Shown here: piece by piece, positions 3 through 41,671 of the stretch
How positions within the stretch are numbered: the stretch's first letter is position 1
Layout of the letters: every line of letters starts with the position of its first letter
DNA from: Candidatus Methylomirabilota bacterium
GTDB lineage: Bacteria; Methylomirabilota; Methylomirabilia; Rokubacteriales; CSP1-6
DNA length: 64,000 nt
Direction of reading: 5' to 3'
Assembly: GCA_046723845.1 (NCBI GenBank)
Contig: JBKOVG010000150.1
Coordinates: 5,491-69,490 of the forward strand
The notes under the pieces: model-generated
Database searches by the model: none
The model's input: the letters and a program-made list of their open reading frames with translations, nothing else
Told to the model about the DNA's origin: nothing
Program-made: the position numbers and the translations under genes

Positions 3-420
3 GGCGCGCCGTCGGCCGCTCCGTCCTACGTCGGCGAGCGGAGCTGGCCCGTCGTCCCCTGGGAGGTCGCGGAGGGCGACCCGCTCCGGCTCACCACGGC
101 CGATCTCGGGGTCGAGCTCACCCGCGATCCCGCGCGGCTCAGCTTCCTCGAGCCGACGGGACAGTGGCTGCTCCGCGAGCCGGAGCACGGCGGCAGGTGG
201 AGCGAGCCCGCGGGTGAGCGCCGTCGCGTGCACGCTGCCTTCGAGTTCTCCGGCGAGCAGCACTTCTACGGCCTGGGCCAGGGCGGGGCCGGCTTCGACC
301 GCTCGGCACGAGCCGCCAGCTCTGGAACTCTCACCTGGGGCACGGCCCCGGCTCGGACATGGGCATCCCCCTCCTCGTCTCCCAGCGCGGCTACGCGCTC
401 TTCTTCTATTCACCAACGCC
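3..420 (+). pseudogene. Glycoside hydrolase family 31 (alpha-glucosidase/alpha-xylosidase) N-terminal fragment. The 5' end lies outside the window. Frameshifted near 290 and truncated where the repeat element begins (~409).
   Basis: Frame 0 translates to ...YVGERSWPVVPWEVAEGDPLRL...EFSGEQHFYGLGQGGAGFDR. After a 1-nt shift it continues LGTSRQLWNSHLGHGPGSDMGIPLLVSQRGYALFFYSP. This matches the GH31 motif series FYGLGE / WNxD / IPF..RGYG (compare E. coli YicI). The remaining ~500 aa of a GH31 enzyme are absent. Confidence 0.45.
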
Positions 421-595
421 GCGAGTGCGACCGGGCGGGTGGCGGTGGAGGGAGGGTGCGCTCAGGCGGAGTGGGACCCCCTCGTCCTGCGCGCAGCCCG
501 CAGGGCTGCGATTCAGGCGAGCGGGTGACGCAGCCTGAGCGCACCCCTCCCCCCGCCGACGGGCCCGCCCGCCTCGCGCTCCGCACGTTCGCGAA
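409..595 (+). repeat. MITE/REP-like intergenic repeat, copy A (forward orientation). It abuts the stop codon of the aminotransferase gene.
   Basis: Aligns over ~185 bp with 29995-30187, including the core ggcggagtgggaccccctcgtcctg...attcaggcgagcgggtgacgcagcc. The terminal cacgaa/ttcgYgaa ends form an imperfect terminal inverted repeat. Confidence 0.7.
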
Positions 596-596
596 G

Positions 597-1817
597 CTAG
601 AGGGATGCCTTGATGGCGATGCGCGCGCCCTCGATCATCTGATCGATCTCGGCCGGCGTCACGTTCAGGGCCGGCATGAAGCGCAGGGTGTCGGGCCGCG
701 GCGCGTTGAGGAGGAGGCCCGTGTTCTCCCAGCCCGGATGCATCTGGAGCTGGTCGCGCGCGTAGGCGACGGCGCGGCCCGCCGCGGGCGCCCCCAGGTC
801 GAGCGCACGCAGGAGCCCGAGGCCGCGCTCCTGCGAGAGGCCCGGCTCCGCCACGAGCGCCTCGAGCTGCTGGCCGAGGTAGGCGCCGGTGGTGGCGACC
901 CCTTCGAGGAAGCCCGGCGCGAGCATCGCCTCCATCACCGCGCAGCCGACTGCGGTCATGAGCGGACTGCCGTTGAAGGTGCCGCCCTGCTCCCCGTGGG
1001 CGAAGACCGACACCTCTTCCTTCGCGCAGAGGGCGGCCAGGGGAACGCCGCCGCCCAGGCCCTTGCCCAGGGTCATGATGTCGGGCGCCTCGTCGTGGCT
1101 CCGCGCGAAGTGCTGGTAGGCGAAGAGCGTGCCCGTGCGCCCCATGCCCGTCTGCACCTCGTCGGCGATGAGCAGGCAGTGGTGACGCCGAGTCAGGGCG
1201 CGGAGCTCGCGGAGGAACGGCAAGCTGGCCGGGAGCACGCCCGCCTCGCCCTGCACGGGCTCGAGCATCACCGCCACCGTCTGGTCGGTGATGAGCGCTT
1301 CCACGGAGGCGATGTCGTTCAGGGTGGCCTTGGGGAAGCCATCCACCTGGGGGGCGAACATGGTGTCCCAGCCCGGCTTGCCGCTCGCCGACATGGTGGC
1401 GAGGGTGCGGCCATGGAAGCCATGATCGAAGGTGATGATCTCGAAGGCGCCATTCTTGACCTTCTGTCCCCACTTGCGGGCGAGCTTGATGGCGCCCTCG
1501 TTGGCCTCGGCGCCTGAGTTGGTGAAGAACACGCGTTGGAAGCTCGAGTGCCGGGTGAGAAGCGAGGCCAGCCGCAGCGACGGCTCGTTGTAGAAAGCAG
1601 GGCTGGGAGTGATGAGCTGTCGCGCCTGCGCGGCGAGCGCTCCCGTGACGGCGGGCGCGCAGTGGCCGAGACACGTGACGGCCCAGCCCTGGACGAAGTC
1701 GAGGTAGCGCTTGCCCGTGTGGTCGGTGAGCCAGGAGCCCTCCCCCTTGACGAAGACGATCTCGGGCCGCTCCGTGATGTCCATGAGGCTGCCGAAGTCG
1801 AACGCGTGCTCAGACAC
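597..1817 (-). CDS. argD: Class-III PLP aminotransferase, most likely acetylornithine aminotransferase
   Basis: Translation contains [39 protein letters not shown]...[20 protein letters not shown]...[10 protein letters not shown], a typical ArgD/class-III aminotransferase. A GTG at 1815-1817 places the start immediately after the upstream GNAT stop. argR lies two genes upstream on the same strand. Confidence 0.7.
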
Positions 1818-2247
1818 GGTAGGGCTCACGATCCACCACCTCCATGAGGCGCTCCGGGTTGGCCGGGGCGCCGAAGCCGAACTGCCGGTAGAGTCCATGG
1901 GCGTCACGGGTGAAGAGCGTCCAGCGGCGCAGCCCCTGCAGCTCGGGGTGCGACATGATGGCGGCCATCAGGGCCTTCCCCACTCCGTGGCCGCGCGCCG
2001 ATTCGAGGGCGAAGACGTCACAGATGTAGGCGAAGGTGGCGTGGTCGCTGATCACGCGGGCGAAGCCGACCTGGCGGCCGTCCTCGAAGGCGCCGAAGCA
2101 CAGCGAGTGCTCCATGGAACGCGCCACCGTCTCACGGGGCACGCCCTTCGCCCAGTACGACGTGGTGAGGAAGCCGTGGATCAGGTCGAGGTCGAGCCGC
2201 GATCGATCGGTGGTGACGACGATCTCCTTGGCGCCGATCTCGCTCAT
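1810..2247 (-). CDS. GNAT family N-acetyltransferase (145 aa), a candidate short N-acetylglutamate synthase given its position between argR and argD
   Basis: GNAT acetyl-CoA motif region ...[23 protein letters not shown]... Start-stop overlap with argR (ATGA at 2244-2247) and with argD. Confidence 0.65.
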
Positions 2248-2741
2248 GCTTCCCGTCCTCCCGCCCGCCCGTCGAGGGCGAGGGCCAAGCGCCGGGCGAG
2301 GGCGCGTGCCGCGCCGTCGCTGGGGGTGGCCACGAACACCGTGTCGTCACCCGCGATGGTGCCCACCACTCCCGCCAGCTCCGCCTCGTCGAGAGCGCGG
2401 GCCACCGGATGCGCGGCGGCGGCCGGCGTCTTCACCACCACCAGCGTCCCCGCCGGTCGCACGGAGAGGGCGGAGCTCCGGAGGGTGCGCCGGAGCTTCT
2501 CCTCGCGGAGGTCGGCGGGAGCGAACCGGGCCACCGGCGCGTCGGGCGCGAGGTAGCCGCGCGGGGTCTTGGCCAGGCCCAGCTCGCGCAGATCGCGAGA
2601 GAGGGTGGGCTGGGCCACCGCGATGCCCCGCTTGCGCAGGAGCTGCTGGAGCTCGCCCTGCGAGCGCACGGCGGACGCCCGCACCAGATCAAGGATGACC
2701 GCCTGTCGCCGCAGGGAGCCGGGGTCGCGGGGTTCATTCAT
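2244..2741 (-). CDS. argR: Arginine repressor ArgR
   Basis: N-terminal winged-helix region QAVILDLVRASAVRSQGELQQLLRKRGIAVAQPTLSRDLRELGL. C-terminal oligomerisation/arginine-binding motif GTIAGDDTVFVATP. Confidence 0.85.
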   Translation of the reverse strand: MNEPRDPGSLRRQAVILDLVRASAVRSQGELQQLLRKRGIAVAQPTLSRDLRELGLAKTPRGYLAPDAPVARFAPADLREEKLRRTLRSSALSVRPAGTLVVVKTPAAAAHPVARALDEAELAGVVGTIAGDDTVFVATPSDGAARALARRLALALDGRAGGREA

Positions 2742-2745
2742 AGTC

Positions 2746-2765
2746 AGTAATAATTATTCATACGG
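2746..2765. promoter_or_regulatory. Putative ARG box (ArgR operator) 5-22 nt upstream of the argR start, in the argR / M20-peptidase divergent region
   Basis: A strongly AT-rich 20-mer in ~70% GC DNA. On the argR sense strand it reads TATGAATAATTATTACTG, matching the TGAAT-wwww-ATTCA ARG-box consensus at 15/18 positions. Confidence 0.4.
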
Positions 2766-2820
2766 GCCATCGTGTCAAGCGGGTTGTGATGGCGCAGGCC
2801 GGGGTGTAGGGTGGGCGCCC

Positions 2821-4254
2821 ATGAGCCCCTCGACCACGAGCCCGCTGCCGCCTCGCGAGACCCTGGCCTTCGTCCAGCGCCGGTGGGAGGAGAACGTCCT
2901 CCCCACCCTCACGCGCTACATCGAGATTCCCGCCAAGTCGCCCTCCTTCGACCGCGAATGGGCAGCCCACGGCCACCTCGATCGCGCGGCCGCCCTCATC
3001 GACGAGTGGGGCCGCCGGCGCCCCATCGAAGGGCTCAAGGTGGAGACGGTGCGCCTGTCCGGACGCACGCCCGTGGTCCTCATGGAGGTGCCCGGCACGG
3101 CGGCGGAGACCATCCTCCTCTACGGCCATTGCGACAAGCAGCCCGAGATGACGGGATGGGCGGAGGGACTGGGCCCGTGGATCCCCGTGCGCCGCGGCGA
3201 CCGCCTCTACGGGCGCGGCGCCCAGGACGATGGCTACGCGGCCTTCTGCGCGCTGACGGCCATCGAGGCGGTGCAGCAGGCGTGGACCCCGCATGCGCGG
3301 CTCGTCGTGCTCATCGAGGCGAGCGAGGAGAGCGGCAGTCCCGACCTGCCCGCCTACATGGAGACATACGCCCGCCGCATCGGTGAGCCGGACCTCGTCA
3401 TCTGCCTCGACTCGGGGTGCGGCAACTACGAGCAGCTCTGGGGTACCACCTCACTGCGCGGGGTGATCAACGGCGTCCTCACCGTGGAGGTGCTGAGCGA
3501 GGGCGTGCACTCGGGGGCGGCCAGCGGCATCGTTCCCTCGAGCTTCCGCATCGCTCGCCAGCTCCTCTCGCGCATCGAGGACGAGCGCACCGGTGTGCTC
3601 GTGCGCGACTTCCACGTCGACGTGCCGCCCGCCCGCGCCGCGGAGGCGCGCGCGGTGGCCAAGGTGCTCATCGGCGAGGCGTCCGAGCGCTTTCCCGTGG
3701 TCCAGGGCATGCGCTATGCGCAGGACGACCCCGCCGCGCTCCTCCTCGCCCAAACCTGGGAGCCCGCGCTCTCCATCACGGGAGCGGCCGGCCTCCCCAC
3801 GCCGGAGGACGGCGGCAACGTGCTCCGGCCCTTCACCTCGCTCAAGCTCTCTCTCCGCATCCCGCCCACCCTGGATGCCGGGCGCGCGGGGCGGCGGCTG
3901 AAGGAGATCCTCGAGAGCGATCCGCCCTACGGGGCCCGCGTGCGCTACGAGACCTCGAGCCCCTCGCCAGGGTGGGACGCGCCGGCGACCGAGCCCTGGC
4001 TCCTCGACGCGATACAGGACGCCTCCGAGCGCCACTTCGGCAAGCCGGCCATGTTCAAGGGCCTCGGCGGCTCGATTCCCTTCATGGCCATGCTGGGCGA
4101 GCGATTCCCGCGGGCGCAGTTCTTCATCACGGGCACGGGGGGGCCGGGCTCCAACGCGCACGGGCCGAACGAGTTCCTGCACGTGCCGTACGCGGAGCGC
4201 CTCACCGCCTGCGTCGCCGACGTGATCGCCGCCCACTACCTGGCGCGACACTAA
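2821..4254 (+). CDS. M20 family metallopeptidase (dipeptidase / ArgE-DapE-CPG2-like)
   Basis: ATG at 2821 (MSPSTTSPL...). Motifs LLYGHCDKQP, GRGAQDDGYA, LIEASEESGS and a C-terminal dimerisation domain. The longer ORF from 2569 is a spurious high-GC extension. Confidence 0.8.
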   Translation: MSPSTTSPLPPRETLAFVQRRWEENVLPTLTRYIEIPAKSPSFDREWAAHGHLDRAAALIDEWGRRRPIEGLKVETVRLSGRTPVVLMEVPGTAAETILLYGHCDKQPEMTGWAEGLGPWIPVRRGDRLYGRGAQDDGYAAFCALTAIEAVQQAWTPHARLVVLIEASEESGSPDLPAYMETYARRIGEPDLVICLDSGCGNYEQLWGTTSLRGVINGVLTVEVLSEGVHSGAASGIVPSSFRIARQLLSRIEDERTGVLVRDFHVDVPPARAAEARAVAKVLIGEASERFPVVQGMRYAQDDPAALLLAQTWEPALSITGAAGLPTPEDGGNVLRPFTSLKLSLRIPPTLDAGRAGRRLKEILESDPPYGARVRYETSSPSPGWDAPATEPWLLDAIQDASERHFGKPAMFKGLGGSIPFMAMLGERFPRAQFFITGTGGPGSNAHGPNEFLHVPYAERLTACVADVIAAHYLARH

Positions 4255-4284
4255 GCGACGGCAGCGAGGCCGGCGCTCGCCTGG

Positions 4285-4458
4285 CCCATTCTCGGAGCGC
4301 GAGGCGGGGCGGGGCCTGTCGTCGGGGGCGGGGGAGCGCTCCAGCTCCGTCACCCGCTCGCCTGACTCGCCGCCCTCCAGGCGGCGCACAGGACGAGGGG
4401 GTCCCACTCCGCCAGAGCGCTCCCCGCCTCCGCCGCCACCCGCCCCGGTCACACGTCC
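4285..4458 (-). repeat. MITE/REP-like repeat, copy B (inverted orientation), sited between the convergent M20-peptidase and DUF1624 genes
   Basis: The reverse complement aligns with copies A and C across the full core (…ggcggagtgggaccccctcgtcctgtgcgccgcc…gcgagcgggtgac…ccccgacgacaggcccc…). It ends 4 nt from the DUF1624 gene stop codon. Confidence 0.7.
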
Positions 4459-4461
4459 GGG

Positions 4462-5496
4462 CTAGGAGAGGCCGACCACAGCGCGGACGCGGGGCTTGAC
4501 GGTGAGCCACGCGCGGCCGATGTAAACGCAGGGGACGACGAGGGCGAGGTTGGCGGTCCAGTAGAGCGTCCAGGAGTGAAGCTGGATCCCCAGCGTGCGG
4601 TGGATCAGCGTCTCCTCGATGAGCTGGTGGATGAAGTAGAGCGGCAAGGCGGTCTGCCCCAGCGTCACCAGCCACGGAAGGTTCCATCCCCGCACCTGCA
4701 TCAGCCAGTAGCAGAGGGCGAGCATGATGGCGACGCCGCCCATGATCAGGAACGTGCTCACCCCCCGCGGCGTCCAGTAGTGATTCAGGCCGAGATCCCG
4801 CCCGAAGCCGAAGCGCGGCGTGGTCGGGATCCACCATTCCCAGGCCGCGTAGGCGAGGAGGAGGACACACCCCGCCGCGGCCACGCCCGTGAAGAACCGC
4901 GCCTCCTCTCGAGCGCCGCGCGCTCGCGCCTCGAGCCACGACCAGCTCGCCACCAGCCCAATGAGGGCGGCGGCGATCCACGGCCACGGTGGGAAGTCGC
5001 CGAAGAGCGACACGCCGAGCCGCGGATGCGCGGCGCACCAGCGCACGAGCGCGTCATGGAGCCACGAGAAGGAGAGATAGAAGAGGACGGCCGCGGCCAG
5101 GAACGCGCCGCGGATCCACCGACGTCGCAGCAGCGGCACGAGCAGCCCCAGCACGATGATGCTGAGCCCGATGGTCTGGAGCACGCCCCCGTGCCACACG
5201 CGCTCCTCGGGGGGCACCGGTCCCCGGGGCAGCATGATCACGTTGAGCGCGTAGCCCGCGGCGATGATGCCGATGCCTCGCCGGCCATACTTGGCGAGCT
5301 CGCCGAGGAAGCCCTCGGTGCGGCCATGCGCGTGGAAGGAGATGGGCAGGCAGAAGCCGACGAGGAAGAGGAACATGGCCGCGGGGAGGAGGAGGCTGCC
5401 GTAGACGAGATGGTAGCGCGTCCAGCCCAGGCTCACGCCGATCCAGTCGCGCGAGGTGTGGTTGATCACCATCAGGATGAGGGCAACGCCGCGCAT
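4462..5496 (-). CDS. DUF1624 / heparan-alpha-glucosaminide N-acetyltransferase-like integral membrane acyltransferase
   Basis: Multi-TM protein beginning ...RLRFIDGMRGVALILMVINH. The first in-frame ATG is at 5494-5496, but conserved family residues (RLRFID) lie upstream of it, so the true start is uncertain. Confidence 0.6.
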   Translation of the reverse strand: MRGVALILMVINHTSRDWIGVSLGWTRYHLVYGSLLLPAAMFLFLVGFCLPISFHAHGRTEGFLGELAKYGRRGIGIIAAGYALNVIMLPRGPVPPEERVWHGGVLQTIGLSIIVLGLLVPLLRRRWIRGAFLAAAVLFYLSFSWLHDALVRWCAAHPRLGVSLFGDFPPWPWIAAALIGLVASWSWLEARARGAREEARFFTGVAAAGCVLLLAYAAWEWWIPTTPRFGFGRDLGLNHYWTPRGVSTFLIMGGVAIMLALCYWLMQVRGWNLPWLVTLGQTALPLYFIHQLIEETLIHRTLGIQLHSWTLYWTANLALVVPCVYIGRAWLTVKPRVRAVVGLS

Positions 5497-5570
5497 GCCG
5501 TCGATGAAGCGGAGCCGTCCCCCGGTGGGCGCCGCTGACGGGAGCGGGCGCGTCGCCGCACTCGCCGTCT

Positions 5571-5984
5571 CTACTGTATGGTTCCCCGTTCCTCGATGAA
5601 GCTGTACGACCACACCGTCACCTTGTAGTGATCGGCGGCGGCCATGCGCACGAACTCGAAGTAGGTCGTGGTGAAGCCGGGCACACCGCCGGGCACGCGC
5701 TGCACCCGCTGATCCACGAGCTTGTCGGCGCTGTCGAGAGCCTGGCCGAGGAGGGTGAAGGGCTCCGCGTACTGCCCCCAGCGGCTGGTGACCCGGCCAT
5801 AGACCACGCGCGAGCCGTCCCCCGCCGCCTGCGCGTTCCACTCGACGGAGAACTTGGACTCCCAGCCCGGCATGAGGGTGGTGAAGGCCGTGTTGGGCGC
5901 GACCTGGTCCACCCCCGCACACGCCGTGACCATCACCGCGACGACTCCGAGGCGGGCCAGGTGGAGGAGCCCGGGCGCGCGCAT
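5571..5984 (-). CDS. Lipoprotein of unknown function
   Basis: Signal peptide with lipobox VAVMVTAC. Non-repetitive sequence, and co-directional with its neighbours. Confidence 0.5.
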   Translation of the reverse strand: MRAPGLLHLARLGVVAVMVTACAGVDQVAPNTAFTTLMPGWESKFSVEWNAQAAGDGSRVVYGRVTSRWGQYAEPFTLLGQALDSADKLVDQRVQRVPGGVPGFTTTYFEFVRMAAADHYKVTVWSYSFIEERGTIQ

Positions 5985-29196: not shown

Positions 29197-29988
29197 ATGA
29201 ATGCAATGGCCGACGAGCCCGTTCGCTCCGAGTCGAAGGACGGCATCCTCACTCTCACCCTCGACCGTCCCGACGTGCTCAACGCCATGAACAACGCCAT
29301 GCGCGCCAAGCTCCTCGAGATCTTCACTCGCCTCCGCACGGACGACACGGTGAAGGTGGTGGTGATCGCGGGAGCGGGCGAGCGGGCCTTCTGCGCGGGT
29401 GCGGACATCCGCGAGTTCCTCGAGCCGCCCACTCCGACCCACTTCCGCGAGTCGCGCAAGCGGCTCGATTTCCGCGCGGAGATGGAGCGCTGCTCGCAGC
29501 CCATCATCGCAGCCATCCGCGGCTTCGCGCTGGGCGGCGGGCTCGAGCTGGCCCTGGCCTGCGACATCCGGATCGCCGCCCAGGACGCGCAGCTCGGCCT
29601 GACCGAGATCAACCTCGCCATCATTCCGGGGGGTGGCGGCACCCAGCGCCTGCCGCGCCTGGTGGGGCGCGGCAAGGCCCTCGAGATGATCCTGACCGGC
29701 ATGCGCGTGCCTGCCGCGGAGGCGCTCCGCATCGGTCTCGTGGAGCGCGTGGTCCCGGTGGCGGAGCTCATGACCGCCGCCCAGGGTCTCGCGCGCCAGA
29801 TCGCGGACAAGGCGCCCATCGCGCTCCGCTACGCCAAGGAAGCGGTGGTGGGCGGGCTCGGGCTGCCCCTGGCCGACGGCATCCGCCTCGAGAACGACCT
29901 GTCCACGCTTCTACGCACCACGGAAGACCGCGTGGAGGGCGCCAAAGCCTTCGTGGAGAAGCGCAAGCCGAACTGGACCGGGCGCTAG
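29197..29988 (+). CDS. Enoyl-CoA hydratase/isomerase (crotonase family)
   Basis: …VVVIAGAGERAFCAGADIREF…AAIRGFALGGGLELALACDIRIAA…. Confidence 0.8.
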   Translation: MNAMADEPVRSESKDGILTLTLDRPDVLNAMNNAMRAKLLEIFTRLRTDDTVKVVVIAGAGERAFCAGADIREFLEPPTPTHFRESRKRLDFRAEMERCSQPIIAAIRGFALGGGLELALACDIRIAAQDAQLGLTEINLAIIPGGGGTQRLPRLVGRGKALEMILTGMRVPAAEALRIGLVERVVPVAELMTAAQGLARQIADKAPIALRYAKEAVVGGLGLPLADGIRLENDLSTLLRTTEDRVEGAKAFVEKRKPNWTGR

Positions 29989-29994
29989 CCGGGA

Positions 29995-30187
29995 CTATTC
30001 ACGAATGCCGCACGTACGACCGGGGGGGGTGGCATCGGGGGCGGGGGAGCGCTCCGGCGGAGTGGGACCCCCTCGTCCTGTGCGCCGCCCGCAGGGCGGC
30101 CATTCAGGCGAGCGGGTGACGCAGCCGGAGCGCTTCCCCGTCCCCGACGACAGGCCCCGACCCGTCTCGCGCTTTGCGTGTTCGTGA
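29995..30187 (+). repeat. MITE/REP-like repeat, copy C (forward orientation), starting 7 nt after the enoyl-CoA hydratase stop
   Basis: Full-length copy with ttcacgaa…ttcgtgaa termini. Near-identical core to copy A, and to copy B in reverse complement. Confidence 0.7.
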
Positions 30188-30212
30188 ATAGTCCAGGCTC
30201 GGCAACGCTCGA

Positions 30213-39437: not shown

Positions 39438-40460
39438 ATGCTCGACACCACCATCGCCGGCAGCTTGCCGAAACCCGCGTGGCTCGCCGCTCCGAACATG
39501 CTGTGGGCGCCCTGGCGGCTCGCGGGCGGCGCGCTCGAGGAGGGCAAGCGCGACGCCGTGCGGCTCGCCTTGCAGGATCAGGCGGAGGCGGGCATCGACA
39601 TCGTCACCGACGGCGAGCAGACGCGCCGGCACTTCGTATGGGGCTTCGTGGAGCGGCTGGAGGGCGTGGACTTCTCGAAGATGGTACGGATCGGGATCCG
39701 CGCCGATCGCTACCAGGCCGACGTGCCCACGGTGACGGCGCCCCTGCGACGCCAGGGGCCGATTCACAGTGACGAGGCGCGTTATCTTCGCGGCCGGACC
39801 CGGCAGCGCATCAAGTTCACCATGCCCGGCCCCATGACCATCGCGGACACCATTCACGACGCGCACTACGGCCGCCGGGCGGACCTGGCCATGGCCCTCG
39901 CCGCCCTCCTCAACGAGGAGGCGCGCGAGCTCGCTGCCCTCGGGGTGGACGTGATCCAACTCGACGAGCCCGCCTTCAACGTCTACATGGACGAGGTGCG
40001 CGAGTGGGGCATCGCCGCCCTCGACCGCGCGGTGGACGGCCTGCCCTGCCGCACCGTGGTCCACATCTGCTACGGCTACGGCATCAAGGCCAACACGGAC
40101 TGGAAGAAAACGCTCGGCGCGGAGTGGCGACAGTACGAGCGGACCTTCCCGCTGCTCGCGGCGAGCCGCATTGGCGGCGTCTCCCTCGAGTGCGCCAACT
40201 CGCACGTGCCCATGTCGCTCATCGGCCTCCTCGGCGACAAGGACGTGCTGGTCGGCGCCATCGACGTGGCGAGCGATCGCGTGGAGACCCCCGAGGAGGT
40301 GGCCGCGGTCATCCGCGAGGCTATGCGTCACGTCAAGCCCTCGCAGATCTTCCCCTGCACCAACTGCGGCATGGTTCCCCTCGGCCGCGATCTCGCCCGC
40401 GCCAAGCTCCACGCTCTCGGCGCCGGCGCCGCCCTCGTCCGCCGCGAACTCCCCGTCTAG
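39438..40460 (+). CDS. Cobalamin-independent methionine synthase (MetE) C-terminal-domain-like methyltransferase, the short ~340-aa form
   Basis: MLDTTIAGSLPKPAWL…IVTDGEQTRRHF…HICYGY…FPCTNCGMVPL, the UROD/MetE_C fold with its Zn ligands. Confidence 0.75.
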   Translation: MLDTTIAGSLPKPAWLAAPNMLWAPWRLAGGALEEGKRDAVRLALQDQAEAGIDIVTDGEQTRRHFVWGFVERLEGVDFSKMVRIGIRADRYQADVPTVTAPLRRQGPIHSDEARYLRGRTRQRIKFTMPGPMTIADTIHDAHYGRRADLAMALAALLNEEARELAALGVDVIQLDEPAFNVYMDEVREWGIAALDRAVDGLPCRTVVHICYGYGIKANTDWKKTLGAEWRQYERTFPLLAASRIGGVSLECANSHVPMSLIGLLGDKDVLVGAIDVASDRVETPEEVAAVIREAMRHVKPSQIFPCTNCGMVPLGRDLARAKLHALGAGAALVRRELPV

Positions 40461-40514
40461 ATCCACTTCCCCGGCCGCGTTGGCACTAACGCGAGGCGGG
40501 GCGGGTCCTGTCAC

Positions 40515-40597
40515 CGAGGGCGGGGGTGCGCTCCCCCTGCCCGCGGCGTCAGGCCCCGCCCGCCTCGCGCTCCGGAGAACGTGCGAACGAGGCCGAG
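40515..40597 (+). repeat. MITE/REP-like repeat, copy D (internally deleted derivative), between the convergent MetE-like and ABC substrate-binding-protein genes
   Basis: Retains the left segment gggcgggggtgcgctcc and the right segment ccccgcccgcctcgcgctccg…gtgcgaacga of the family. It lacks the ~80-bp core. It ends 10 nt from the substrate-binding-protein gene stop. Confidence 0.5.
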
Positions 40598-40606
40598 CGC
40601 CGGAGG

Positions 40607-41671
40607 CTACTTGAGCTTGTAGCCCTTGGCCTCCGCGGCAATCTTCGCCGCGTCGAACTTGTTGATGTCGTCGATTAGCTCGTTGGTGATGAGGTCGCGC
40701 CAGTCGACCTTCTCCTTGATGACGCCCCACTTCAGCATGAAGTCCGTGTAGGCCGCGTAGTTCGCCTCCGAGTTCTCGCCCCACTTCTTGACGCCGGACT
40801 TGTCGAGCTTCCAGTTCGCCACGCGCGCCTGCAGCACCTTCACGTCGTCGCGGATGGCCGTGGCCTCGCCCTTGCCCGTGGGCTTGGTCGCCGGATAGAC
40901 GTCGTAGAGGATGCGGATGGCCGCCTCGGGGTTGGCGATGGCGAACACCGTGCCCATGGCGTAGCCGCGGGCGAGGGCGACCATCTCCTTCCGCTTGTTC
41001 TTGAGCGTCTCCTCGAGGGCGAGGAAGCCGTTCGAGGGATAGCGGTCGATGTCCTTGGTGTCGAGCACGCGCAGCTTCACCCCCGCGTTCTCCACCAGCG
41101 CGTACTGGGTGTCATACTGGGAGAGCGCGTCCACCTGCTTGGTCCTGAGGAGGGCCGCCGTCTGCGCCCCTTCCCCCGCCACCACGATGTTGATGTCCTT
41201 GTCGGGGTTCATGCCATTGGTTGAGGCGAGGGCCCGCGCGATCAGCACGCCCGCCGAGCCCATGGCGATGACGCCGATGTTCTTGCCCTTGAGGTCGGTG
41301 AACTTCTGCACGGAGCTGTCCGCGGGCACCGCGATGCCGTAGATGTTCCCCTGGTACGCGGTGTAGAAGATCTTGGCCTTGATCCCCTGCGGCCGGCCCA
41401 CGGCGAGCGGCTCCACGCTGGGCAGGGCGGCCACCACCTCGCGCGTGGCCACATTCTTCACGCAGTCGCCGGAGCCGGGCAGCGGCACCAGCTCCACCTC
41501 GATGCCTTCTGCCTTGTACCACCCCATCTTGGTGGCGATGGCGAAGGGCGAGGTGGCGCTCGAGATGGTACGCGAGCACCAGCCCACCGCGAGCTTGGTC
41601 TGGGCCACGGCGGGGACGGCGGCGCCGAGGGCGAGGGTGAGCAGGGTGACGGCGGCGGTGAGATGCCTCAT
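40607..41671 (-). CDS. ABC transporter substrate-binding protein, NitT/TauT (SsuA-like aliphatic sulfonate / nitrate) family
   Basis: ATG at 41669-41671 (MRHLTAAVTLLTLALGAAVPAVAQ signal peptide). The longer ORF to 42385 is spurious. Confidence 0.75.
   Translation of the reverse strand: MRHLTAAVTLLTLALGAAVPAVAQTKLAVGWCSRTISSATSPFAIATKMGWYKAEGIEVELVPLPGSGDCVKNVATREVVAALPSVEPLAVGRPQGIKAKIFYTAYQGNIYGIAVPADSSVQKFTDLKGKNIGVIAMGSAGVLIARALASTNGMNPDKDINIVVAGEGAQTAALLRTKQVDALSQYDTQYALVENAGVKLRVLDTKDIDRYPSNGFLALEETLKNKRKEMVALARGYAMGTVFAIANPEAAIRILYDVYPATKPTGKGEATAIRDDVKVLQARVANWKLDKSGVKKWGENSEANYAAYTDFMLKWGVIKEKVDWRDLITNELIDDINKFDAAKIAAEAKGYKLK

Follow-up and report, generated by a model that had tools for sequence, protein, structure and literature searches.

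Which kind of sequence adjoins the stop codons of unrelated genes at four places in the genome of an uncultured Candidatus Methylomirabilota bacterium, and what places it there, are the questions raised by a 64,000-nucleotide stretch of contig JBKOVG010000150.1 (GenBank assembly GCA_046723845.1, positions 5,491 to 69,490 of the forward strand). This stretch is denoted here the window, and coordinates without a further label are counted from its first letter. A preliminary description, drawn from the sequence alone, listed four copies of a repeat of about 185 bp, likened them to MITEs (miniature transposable elements with inverted repeats), and left the choice between a terminator-like function and insertion into gene gaps. 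The evidence presented below indicates, with a probability that we put at roughly 0.85, that these repeats are a non-autonomous DNA transposon, namely a MITE with IS1380-type ends, of Candidatus Rokubacteria/Methylomirabilota, which inserts at CTAG or, more broadly, at YTAR.

Copies of the repeat in the window

All four copies of the preliminary description are present in the window, the G+C content of which is 69%. Three of them are long (A, 406-600; B, 4276-4465, inverted; C, 29985-30201), and a fourth (D, 40461-40606) is short and rearranged. The long copies show 83-92% pairwise identity over 130-147 nt and share an identical core, the 25-mer GGCGGAGTGGGACCCCCTCGTCCTG, which occurs exactly three times in the window, at 465 (+), 4389 (-) and 30056 (+), against 0.00 occurrences expected from 100 shuffles. 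A profile search of the 64 kb with nhmmer recovers these four copies and no others. The genes next to them are unrelated, and the copies are not segments of a single duplicated gene.

The best-preserved representative is copy C (29985-30201, plus strand), to which correspond two empty alleles, in loci L085 and L074, that lack exactly positions 29989-30201 between aligned flanks. Copy C consists of a CTAG tetranucleotide (29985-29988), a 209-bp element (29989-30197) and a degenerate duplicate of the tetranucleotide, CTCG (30198-30201). The element is bounded by terminal repeats, CCGGGACTATTCACGAA on the left and TTCGTGAATAGTCCAGG on the right, in which 14 bases are perfectly complementary, and encloses a central structured module (30022-30161, plus strand; 126 bits with the covariance model R1, see below) that is composed of a mid-stem internal loop (GGGTGGC/GACAGGCCC), a variable helix and an invariant apical core at approximately 30054-30130. 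The repeat unit thus measures about 210 bp (209 bp plus the CTAG duplication) rather than 185 bp, and the inverted termini noted previously (ttcacSaa ... ttcgYgaa) are real but make up only the inner part of a 17-nt terminal repeat. The 209-bp element has no coding capacity, and its conservation follows the paired helices rather than codons; the open reading frames (ORFs) that run over the copies are, as had been suspected, spurious read-throughs in differing frames.

Copy A (406-600, plus strand; 127.5 bits with the covariance model) resembles the other copies from a point within the left repeat onwards (CTATTCACCAA at 406-416), the left tip and the left duplication being gone; its right repeat is about 8 nt short, and the right CTAG occupies 597-600. 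Copy B (4276-4465, minus strand) carries CTAG at 4462-4465 and CGAG at the far end (4276-4279), and about 35 nt of its left repeat region are deleted relative to the ortholog in locus L069. Copy D (40461-40606, strand undefined), flanked by CTAG on the left (40457-40460) and CTAC on the right (40607-40610), is a core-less, symmetrised derivative with a hairpin at 40491-40573, in which the reverse complement of the 3′ arm is followed by the 3′ arm itself and the apex is absent. The left half of copy D aligns to the reverse-complemented 3′ arm with a score of 31 and to the 5′ arm with a score of 18. The earlier characterisation of this copy (as 40515-40597, an internally deleted derivative) needs correction, the copy being a symmetrised palindrome and not the product of a simple internal deletion.

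Insertion, ends and target site

Hairpin boundaries called by minimum free energy are too noisy in G+C-rich flanks to set the ends of the element, and copies were anchored on the conserved motifs TTCACGA/TCGTGAA to define them. The consensus is CTAG-CCNGGAYTATTCACGAG ... CTCGTGAATARTCCNGG-CTAG, with 17-nt terminal inverted repeats; the position matrix contains CTAG-CCNGGAYTATTCACGA at both ends, and the signal is gone immediately outside CTAG.

The site of copy C provides the evidence of insertion. An exact-protein look-up with the enoyl-CoA hydratase encoded next to this copy matched no record; empty sites were reached via contigs that encode close homologs of the enzyme (96-97% identical proteins). 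The empty allele L085 (enoyl-CoA hydratase 96% identical) reads GGGCG-CTAG-GCGACGCTCGAGTG (in a longer version, GCGACGCTCGAGTGAA), whereas the filled site of the window reads GGGCG-CTAG-[209 bp]-CTCG-GCAACGCTCGAGTG (longer, GCAACGCTCGAGTGAA). The two are separated by one clean gap of exactly 213 nt, and their downstream flanks are about 93% identical for more than 100 nt. The same site is empty in L074, where the stop codon is TGA, and L015 is empty at the site of the copy found in L061. Given the 213-nt gap and the single CTAG of the empty allele, the element must have been inserted, and its target was duplicated in the process.

Because CTAG is palindromic, duplications of 2, 3 and 4 bp look alike within the window. 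The metagenome scan with the terminal-repeat pattern returned at least 120 loci. Among the 125 matches listed, two are the Rokubacterial element; the others are short elements of 37-330 nt, many from A+T-rich organisms, which share the ends and have different interiors. The direct repeats at the listed elements include five cases of CTAA/CTAA, three each of TTAA and CTAG, two each of TTAG/TTAG and GTAG/GTAG, and one of CTAC/CTAC. Since CTAA, TTAG and GTAG are not palindromic, the duplication is one of 4 bp, with the consensus YTAR. The target-site duplications that the preliminary description had proposed to look for are thus found, as CTAG in the window family. In one copy of the Rokubacterial family (L072) the flanks are CCAG/CCAG, and the left and right flanking tetranucleotides decay symmetrically among the copies.

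A full-length relative and the probable mode of transposition

A 1432-bp element in a metagenomic locus (L148:205-1636; CTAG-CCCGGATTATTCACGAG...CTTCGTGAATAATCCGGG-CTAG) has the same 17-nt ends as the window element. Its single ORF encodes a protein of 442 amino acids that matches the IS1380 family transposase model NF033539 with 375 bits (cut-off, 180) and PF13701 with an E-value of 1.7e-139, and a search for homologs of this transposase yields thousands of relatives. The window repeats are classified as a MITE with IS1380-type ends because this element combines the same ends and the CTAG duplication with an IS1380-family transposase. The ends of IS1380-family elements start with CC, and their direct repeats are 4-5 bp long; the tip CCNGGATT resembles the repeat of ISEcp1. 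IS1247, a member of the IS1380 family, makes a 5-bp repeat. The piggyBac transposon, to the transposase of which those of IS1380 are an outgroup, inserts at TTAA and rarely at CTAA or TTAG (PMC10813416).

Five features by which MITEs are recognised are found in this family: it is non-coding, has terminal inverted repeats, duplicates its target, is dispersed in many copies and has ends in common with an autonomous insertion sequence. The empty site and the full-length relative thereby lend substance to the original idea of a MITE-like mobile repeat family. Transposition, we infer, would be carried out by an IS1380-family DDE transposase supplied in trans.

Several observations weigh against this assignment. 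It is only the identity of the ends and of the duplication that suggests a link to an L148-type parent; nothing but the 17-nt ends is common to the two elements, and the interior of the window element is an unrelated structured hairpin. The approximately 0.6 Mb of Rokubacterial DNA examined yielded no transposase with such ends, none was seen next to any copy, and a search of the window and the 73 loci described below for isolated terminal repeats or the parent element returned none. Recognisable IS1380-type ends are kept by about a quarter of the copies (19 left and 17 right ends of 72), mostly in the lineage of the window, and many copies of other lineages end differently, in ...GAAAAG directly followed by CTAG. 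Identical flanking tetranucleotides are present in 5 of the 14 copies with two recognisable ends, a proportion that fits old insertions and is weak evidence when taken alone. Finally, the interior core and not the ends is the best-conserved part of the element, which is the opposite of typical MITEs and is unexplained by MITE biology.

Copies of the AR and MFD lineages (L010:3144-3330, L013:2700-2880, L019:5880-6029, L050:1480-1660) are without the IS1380-type terminal repeat and have the ...GAAAAG right end next to CTAG. Such ends suggest that the core module either occurs with a second type of end or has been preserved while its ends decayed strongly.

Two other modes of transposition have to be weighed against the IS1380-type one. 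The repeats might be a MITE of the IS630/Tc1-mariner group, which would duplicate TA within CTAG, or of the IS5 family, with a 4-bp YTAR duplication. IS630 prefers TA within CTAG, according to a statement in PMC2170065 that cites Tenzen and Ohtsubo (1991), and duplication of CTAG or YTAA is described for MITEPsy1, a relative of an IS5-family element (PMC3189936). The palindromic CTAG of the window copies would fit duplications of any of the three lengths. The CTAA/CTAA, TTAG/TTAG and GTAG/GTAG repeats, however, are duplications of 4 bp and not of TA, the only full-length element found with these ends belongs to the IS1380 family, and the ends begin with CC, as in elements of that family, all of which makes an IS630 or IS5 parentage improbable. 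Still less credible is a REPIN-like hairpin that would move as single-stranded DNA under the action of a single-copy HUH tyrosine transposase (RAYT, IS200/IS605 type) and insert 3′ of CTAG without duplication, the right CTAG being part of the element. The whole element is indeed a hairpin with a tetranucleotide at each foot and a strand-specific fold, and compensatory changes and long orthologous persistence are reported for REPINs as well (PMC3116915). Such a mechanism is contradicted by the non-palindromic 4-bp direct repeats on both sides of the end-sharing elements, by CCAG/CCAG at L072, by the symmetric decay of the tetranucleotides, and by the DDE transposase of the IS1380 family that is encoded in the same-ended element; moreover, REPINs are most conserved at their ends, whereas the window element is most conserved at its apex. 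A regular-expression scan of 0.57 Mb of neighbouring DNA for HUH-Y (RAYT/IS200-like) motifs found none, although a single-copy gene could lie outside this DNA.

Why the copies adjoin stop codons

The tetranucleotide CTAG is about six-fold depleted in the window (31 occurrences observed versus 181 expected from base composition), and it holds TAG on both strands. Gene calls around the copies, which are approximations based on the G+C content at third codon positions (GC3), give 72 gene 3′ ends and 18 gene starts on the flanking sides of the 78 copies defined by the covariance model, and 18 convergent and no divergent gaps. Genes that abut a copy end in TAG in 40 cases, in TAA in 17 and in TGA in 15, as compared with 226 TGA, 144 TAG and 32 TAA among all genes called in the same DNA. 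Where a full-length copy adjoins a gene end, the commonest source of the stop is the TAG within the terminal CTAG (about 22 of about 45 sides of this kind); a terminal tetranucleotide contributes the stop at all four window copies, and at copy D on either side. The gene of the empty allele L085 has CTAG at its end even without the element, which thus hit an existing stop and did not create one.

The copies thus adjoin stops because their target is rare and holds TAG on both strands. CTAG is avoided in a genome with 69% G+C, and the targets that are tolerated would therefore mostly be TAG stop codons; once the element is in place, one of the two duplicated tetranucleotides would still serve as the stop of the gene, while insertions into genes or promoter gaps are presumably purged. 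Target choice and the removal of harmful insertions are enough to explain the stop-adjoining placement. The preliminary description came close to this explanation when it invoked insertion with purifying selection elsewhere, but it did not foresee the main cause, CTAG targeting. Its emphasis on convergent genes holds for copies B and D and not for the other two, copy A being located between a gene remnant and a convergent gene and copy C before a co-directional gene. As an observation apart, many of the 31 CTAG sites of the window appear at gene ends or in intergenic gaps.

For a terminator-like function we find no direct support, given that no U-tract follows any hairpin and that the copies occur in either orientation relative to the flanking genes (13 left-only, 23 right-only; no significant bias). 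An intrinsic (Rho-independent) terminator was considered and rejected: the G+C-rich hairpin is there, and no T-run comes after it, the flanks of copies A-D included. A scan for terminators and promoters around copy C found no terminator, and the sole promoter-like site is located upstream of the next gene, outside the element.

In three loci from relatives of the window organism (L075:2293-2360, L077:2284-2350, L078:2284-2356), an unrelated hairpin of about 70-80 nt (GGGGTCAGGTCTTGAA...TTCAAGACCTGACCCC) comes immediately behind the stop codon, TAG or TAA, of the enoyl-CoA hydratase gene. Neither the window nor the other loci contain this hairpin, and its position after the same stop indicates that the site was taken independently by another palindromic element.

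The structured interior

Each long copy folds into one imperfect hairpin of about 190-210 nt with a free energy of -124 to -148 kcal/mol (z = -4 to -8 versus shuffles); copy C forms a single hairpin of -148.5 kcal/mol (z = -8.3), and copy D one of 80 nt. The covariance model R1 covers the central 142 positions, was built from 73 copies and aligns 78 top-strand copies. In this alignment, which was fitted to the structure and for that reason favours pairing statistics, 98.4% of the cells are in standard pairs; shuffling lowers this share to 80.4%, and sliding the partners by 1-3 columns lowers it to 34-52%. Cells changed on both sides number 475, compared with 115 in shuffles, and no shuffle reaches any of the observed measures. 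An alignment made with MAFFT only agrees, with double changes at 25 of the 41 pairs.

The two parts of the hairpin evolve in different ways: an apical core of about 75 nt is invariant in sequence, whereas the stem is hypervariable yet paired. All 15 pairs of the middle helix covary, with up to four pair types per position and diversity even within one genome. The 13-pair core helix, the internal loops, a bulged U, a C.Y mismatch and a U.G pair are nearly invariant, and the apical helix covaries. The uniformity of the core is partly built in, since most copies were gathered by a core 20-mer, and to that extent the contrast is a further point against the interpretation developed here; the roughly 10 copies found without the exact 20-mer differ from it at only 1-4 positions.

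Copies at orthologous sites can be compared with their surroundings. Copy B and its ortholog in L069 are 90% identical over the element and 92% over the core, so that such orthologous copies stand at 90-92% versus 73-80% at third codon positions of the flanking genes. Between L059 and L025 about 110 nt of the core are identical, with flanks that are 77-88% identical. Divergence of the variable helix is close to that of the flanks. In orthologous pairs, 2-8 pair changes are compensatory and 0-3 are breaks, counts in which some G-C to C-G flips within G-runs may be artefacts of alignment register. Compensatory changes at orthologous sites imply that pairing is kept in place and is not merely inherited from a master copy.

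The fold is polar. Scores with the model are 100-140 bits for the top strand and 35-47 bits for the opposite one, and the top strand contains 77 G.U pairs versus 17 A.C mismatches (78 versus 23 in the MAFFT alignment). The G.U excess does not depend on which neighbouring gene, the left or the right one, reads into the element, and its use as a sign of an RNA in the 3′ untranslated region (3′-UTR) was for that reason dropped. This independence of the reading-in gene, together with the unbiased orientation of the copies, argues against selection on the host mRNA strand; the asymmetry is compatible with an element-intrinsic single-stranded form or with features derived from founder copies.

Selection or neutral upkeep of the core

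Whether the hairpin core is kept by selection or by neutral processes is a question to which we give the two answers about equal weight. Selection could act on the module as a folded single strand that is recognised by some partner, which we consider plausible at somewhat less than even odds. More tentative is the specific proposal that the MITE serves as a vehicle and that a particular partner (a protein, an RNA or a factor that binds single-stranded DNA) recognises the core on one strand. If a partner does recognise the core, the module would be selected at dozens to hundreds of gene ends across Rokubacteria, and it would represent a new class of dispersed hairpins, regulatory or genome-structuring in role, that an IS1380-type transposase has spread.

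Neutral upkeep, which likewise falls a little short of even odds, would combine template switching at the quasi-palindrome, by which one arm is copied onto the other, with gene conversion that keeps the cores uniform. Copy D has exactly the form that arm-to-arm templating predicts, a complement of the 3′ arm standing in place of the 5′ arm and the apex being lost, and its symmetrised arms therefore indicate that neutral processes do act on these hairpins. Identity between cores extends over at least 75 nt, a length sufficient for homologous conversion, divergence of the variable helix is near that of the flanks, and the strand asymmetry is independent of host transcription. Correction of this kind should, however, erase bulges and mismatches, yet the same asymmetric loops, bulged U, C.Y mismatch and U.G pair are seen in all 78 copies and in distant lineages; and conversion within one genome does not explain why the core is the same across genomes. 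A host-selected RNA module in 3′-UTRs, co-transcribed with the upstream gene, could be added to the mobile-element interpretation, and might work as a tail-less terminator, a barrier to 3′-exonucleases, or a binding site for RNase III or another protein, along the lines proposed for REP, ERIC and Correia sequences; both the module as such and this range of activities appear doubtful. In their favour, the copies lie right after stops and never in divergent gaps, persist at orthologous sites of different species despite flank identities of only 77-88%, with a core identity of up to 100% over about 110 nt, are conserved above synonymous sites, and show in-place compensatory changes, strong covariation, and invariance of specific internal loops and of one U.G pair. 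Against them, no U-tract follows any hairpin, the element takes either orientation to the gene that reads in (13 versus 23), the strand asymmetry is the same whichever gene does so, which a function in host mRNA does not predict, the CTAG target already explains the placement, and Rfam contains no match.

Distribution of the family

A scan for the core 20-mer with one genome per species returned 73 loci, nearly all of them from about 15 metagenome-assembled genomes (MAGs) of Candidatus Rokubacteria/Methylomirabilota. These MAGs contain at least 78 copies, beside unrelated genes; in the collected DNA the covariance model finds 78 top-strand copies and nhmmer 86, the latter total including copies without the exact 20-mer. 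One MAG has about 35 matches to the 20-mer and one long-read MAG has 13, such per-genome counts being lower bounds because they rely on an exact 20-mer. The repeat is thus far from confined to the window, and the absence of further copies, which the preliminary description had named as a ground for refutation, is not what is observed. A full-text literature search on Rokubacterial repeats found no description of it; the family belongs to a known kind, the MITEs, and is newly recognised in soil Rokubacteria. Rfam at its gathering scores gives 0 matches in the window, and a relaxed search with copy C yields only two models of miRNA precursors, at about 21 bits against gathering scores of 137-142.

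Two good copies (L045:1930-2071 and L071:2585-2689; 126 and 116 bits) come from a MAG labelled Candidatus Binatia, which reflects either mis-binning or presence of the family outside Rokubacteria. A match in Nocardiopsis (L021:7807-7826) was discarded as chance or unrelated, there being no element around it and no match to the profile or the covariance model. Certain copies are arranged in pairs. In L043:2068-2632, L024:4506-4921 and L058:1918-2365, two copies are placed head to head (minus, plus), 130-210 nt apart with no gene between them, which recalls REP/BIME arrays. In L056:884-2630, two inverted copies flank one gene, a layout like that of a composite transposon; the flanked gene was rejected as a transposase candidate, as its product is predicted to be a secreted protein and matches no Pfam family. 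The families that recur beside the copies are luciferase-like monooxygenases, ABC ATPases, short-chain dehydrogenases and enoyl-CoA hydratases. A recurrent enzyme partner was nevertheless dismissed, because protein clustering gave only abundant paralogs.

Genes next to the copies

Upstream of copy A is the remnant of a GH31 glycosidase gene (3-405, plus strand) with an N-terminal mutarotase-like domain (PF13802, E = 4.5e-13, 50 bits versus a cut-off of 27). It is read in frame 3 to about 300, has a frameshift near 300-320 and continues in frame 2, with a GC3 of 0.9-1.0, to end with GYALFF at the start of copy A. The remnant is a decayed pseudogene, the remainder of the gene being absent. It does end at copy A, as noted before, but plain insertion does not account for this, the left tip and the duplication being absent from the junction; the junction is best read as a probable later deletion with one end inside copy A, because the likeness of copy A starts inside the left repeat and the right repeat is shortened. 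On the other side, a class-III aminotransferase gene (597-1907, minus strand; PF00202, E = 9e-100) has its TAG stop (597-599) within the right CTAG of copy A.

Copy B occupies most of the 207-nt gap between two convergent genes, an M20 peptidase gene (2569-4254, plus strand; PF01546), the TAA stop of which is 21 nt from the far end of the copy, and an acyltransferase-family gene (4462-5922, minus strand; PF07786, PF01757), the TAG stop of which is within CTAG 4462-4465. The enoyl-CoA hydratase gene (29197-29988, plus strand; PF00378, E = 1e-69) ends with a TAG (29986-29988) that is part of the left CTAG of copy C; 440 nt beyond the copy, a DinB-family gene begins on the same strand. At copy D, a Meth_synt_2-family gene (39438-40460, plus strand; PF01717) has its TAG stop within the CTAG to the left. 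On the right, a gene for an NMT1-like substrate-binding protein (40607-41650, minus strand, start coordinate approximate; PF09084, E = 7e-31) has a stop that reads CTA on the plus strand (40607-40609) within CTAC.

Other elements with the same ends

Among the matches listed in the metagenome scan, loci L087-L206 (e.g., L090:5400-5660, L094, L097, L100, L107) hold many MITE-like families, from unrelated organisms and other phyla, that share CCNGGAYTATTCACGAG and 4-bp YTAR repeats; the commonest type is about 250 nt long and begins with TCGAGGTTGCCGCAGATGCGAGGCG. Judged by these sequences, the listed families seem to form a broad superfamily of MITEs that is linked to IS1380. Elements reduced to 37-49 nt (L096:1690-1735, L099:160-205, L174:1945-1995) comprise hardly more than two terminal repeats placed back to back, with TTAG, CTAG or similar flanks.

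For the annotation of this uncultured soil phylum, a simple rule emerges: a hairpin of about 210 bp after a TAG stop is a mobile element and not a terminator or a gene, and spurious ORFs that read through it can be discarded. More generally, target choice alone can set a transposon on stop codons and in convergent gaps, a pattern that is easily misread as function. The family adds a MITE tied to IS1380-type ends, with a YTAR target behaviour like that of piggyBac at TTAA, and its invariant core on a covarying stem at orthologous sites offers a test case for structural selection versus neutral correction of palindromes.

Comparison with known systems

MITEPsy1 of Pseudomonas syringae is likewise a short non-coding MITE with a CTAG or YTAA target and a 4-nt duplication, but it is 100 nt long, its ends are like those of ISPsy2 (IS5-type by our own reading), and neither a structured core nor a link to stop codons is reported for it (PMC3189936). 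REPINs and their RAYT transposases resemble the present family in being hairpin extragenic repeats with compensatory changes and long orthologous persistence; they differ in having the most conserved ends, no target duplication and an HUH tyrosine transposase (PMC3116915), where the window element has a conserved apex and a 4-bp duplication, and the full-length element with matching ends encodes a DDE transposase. IS1380-family elements (IS1380, IS1247, ISEcp1) and the piggyBac transposons, their relatives in eukaryotes, have repeats that start with CC and a 4-bp duplication at a TA-centred palindromic target in common with the window element, which differs from them in its length of 209 bp, the lack of a transposase gene and the interior hairpin. 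Integron attC sites, single-strand origins, Y RNA, 6S and SRP RNA, and retron RNA were considered and set aside, as their copy number, spacing, position of the conserved part or duplication do not fit.

The ERIC/IRU, Correia (NEMIS) and YPAL sequences of enterobacteria and Neisseria are imperfect palindromes over their whole length of 100-170 bp, with TA-centred targets and insertion in both orientations. They are located in transcribed gaps near gene ends, where the long RNA hairpins can affect mRNA processing, and none of them has a known cognate transposase. In shape and location, ERIC and Correia are the closest analogues of the Rokubacterial element, although their sequences are unrelated and come from other phyla. 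What distinguishes the window family from ERIC, Correia and YPAL is the candidate IS1380-type parent, the full CTAG target and the more extreme division of the hairpin into an invariant apex and a hypervariable, paired stem.

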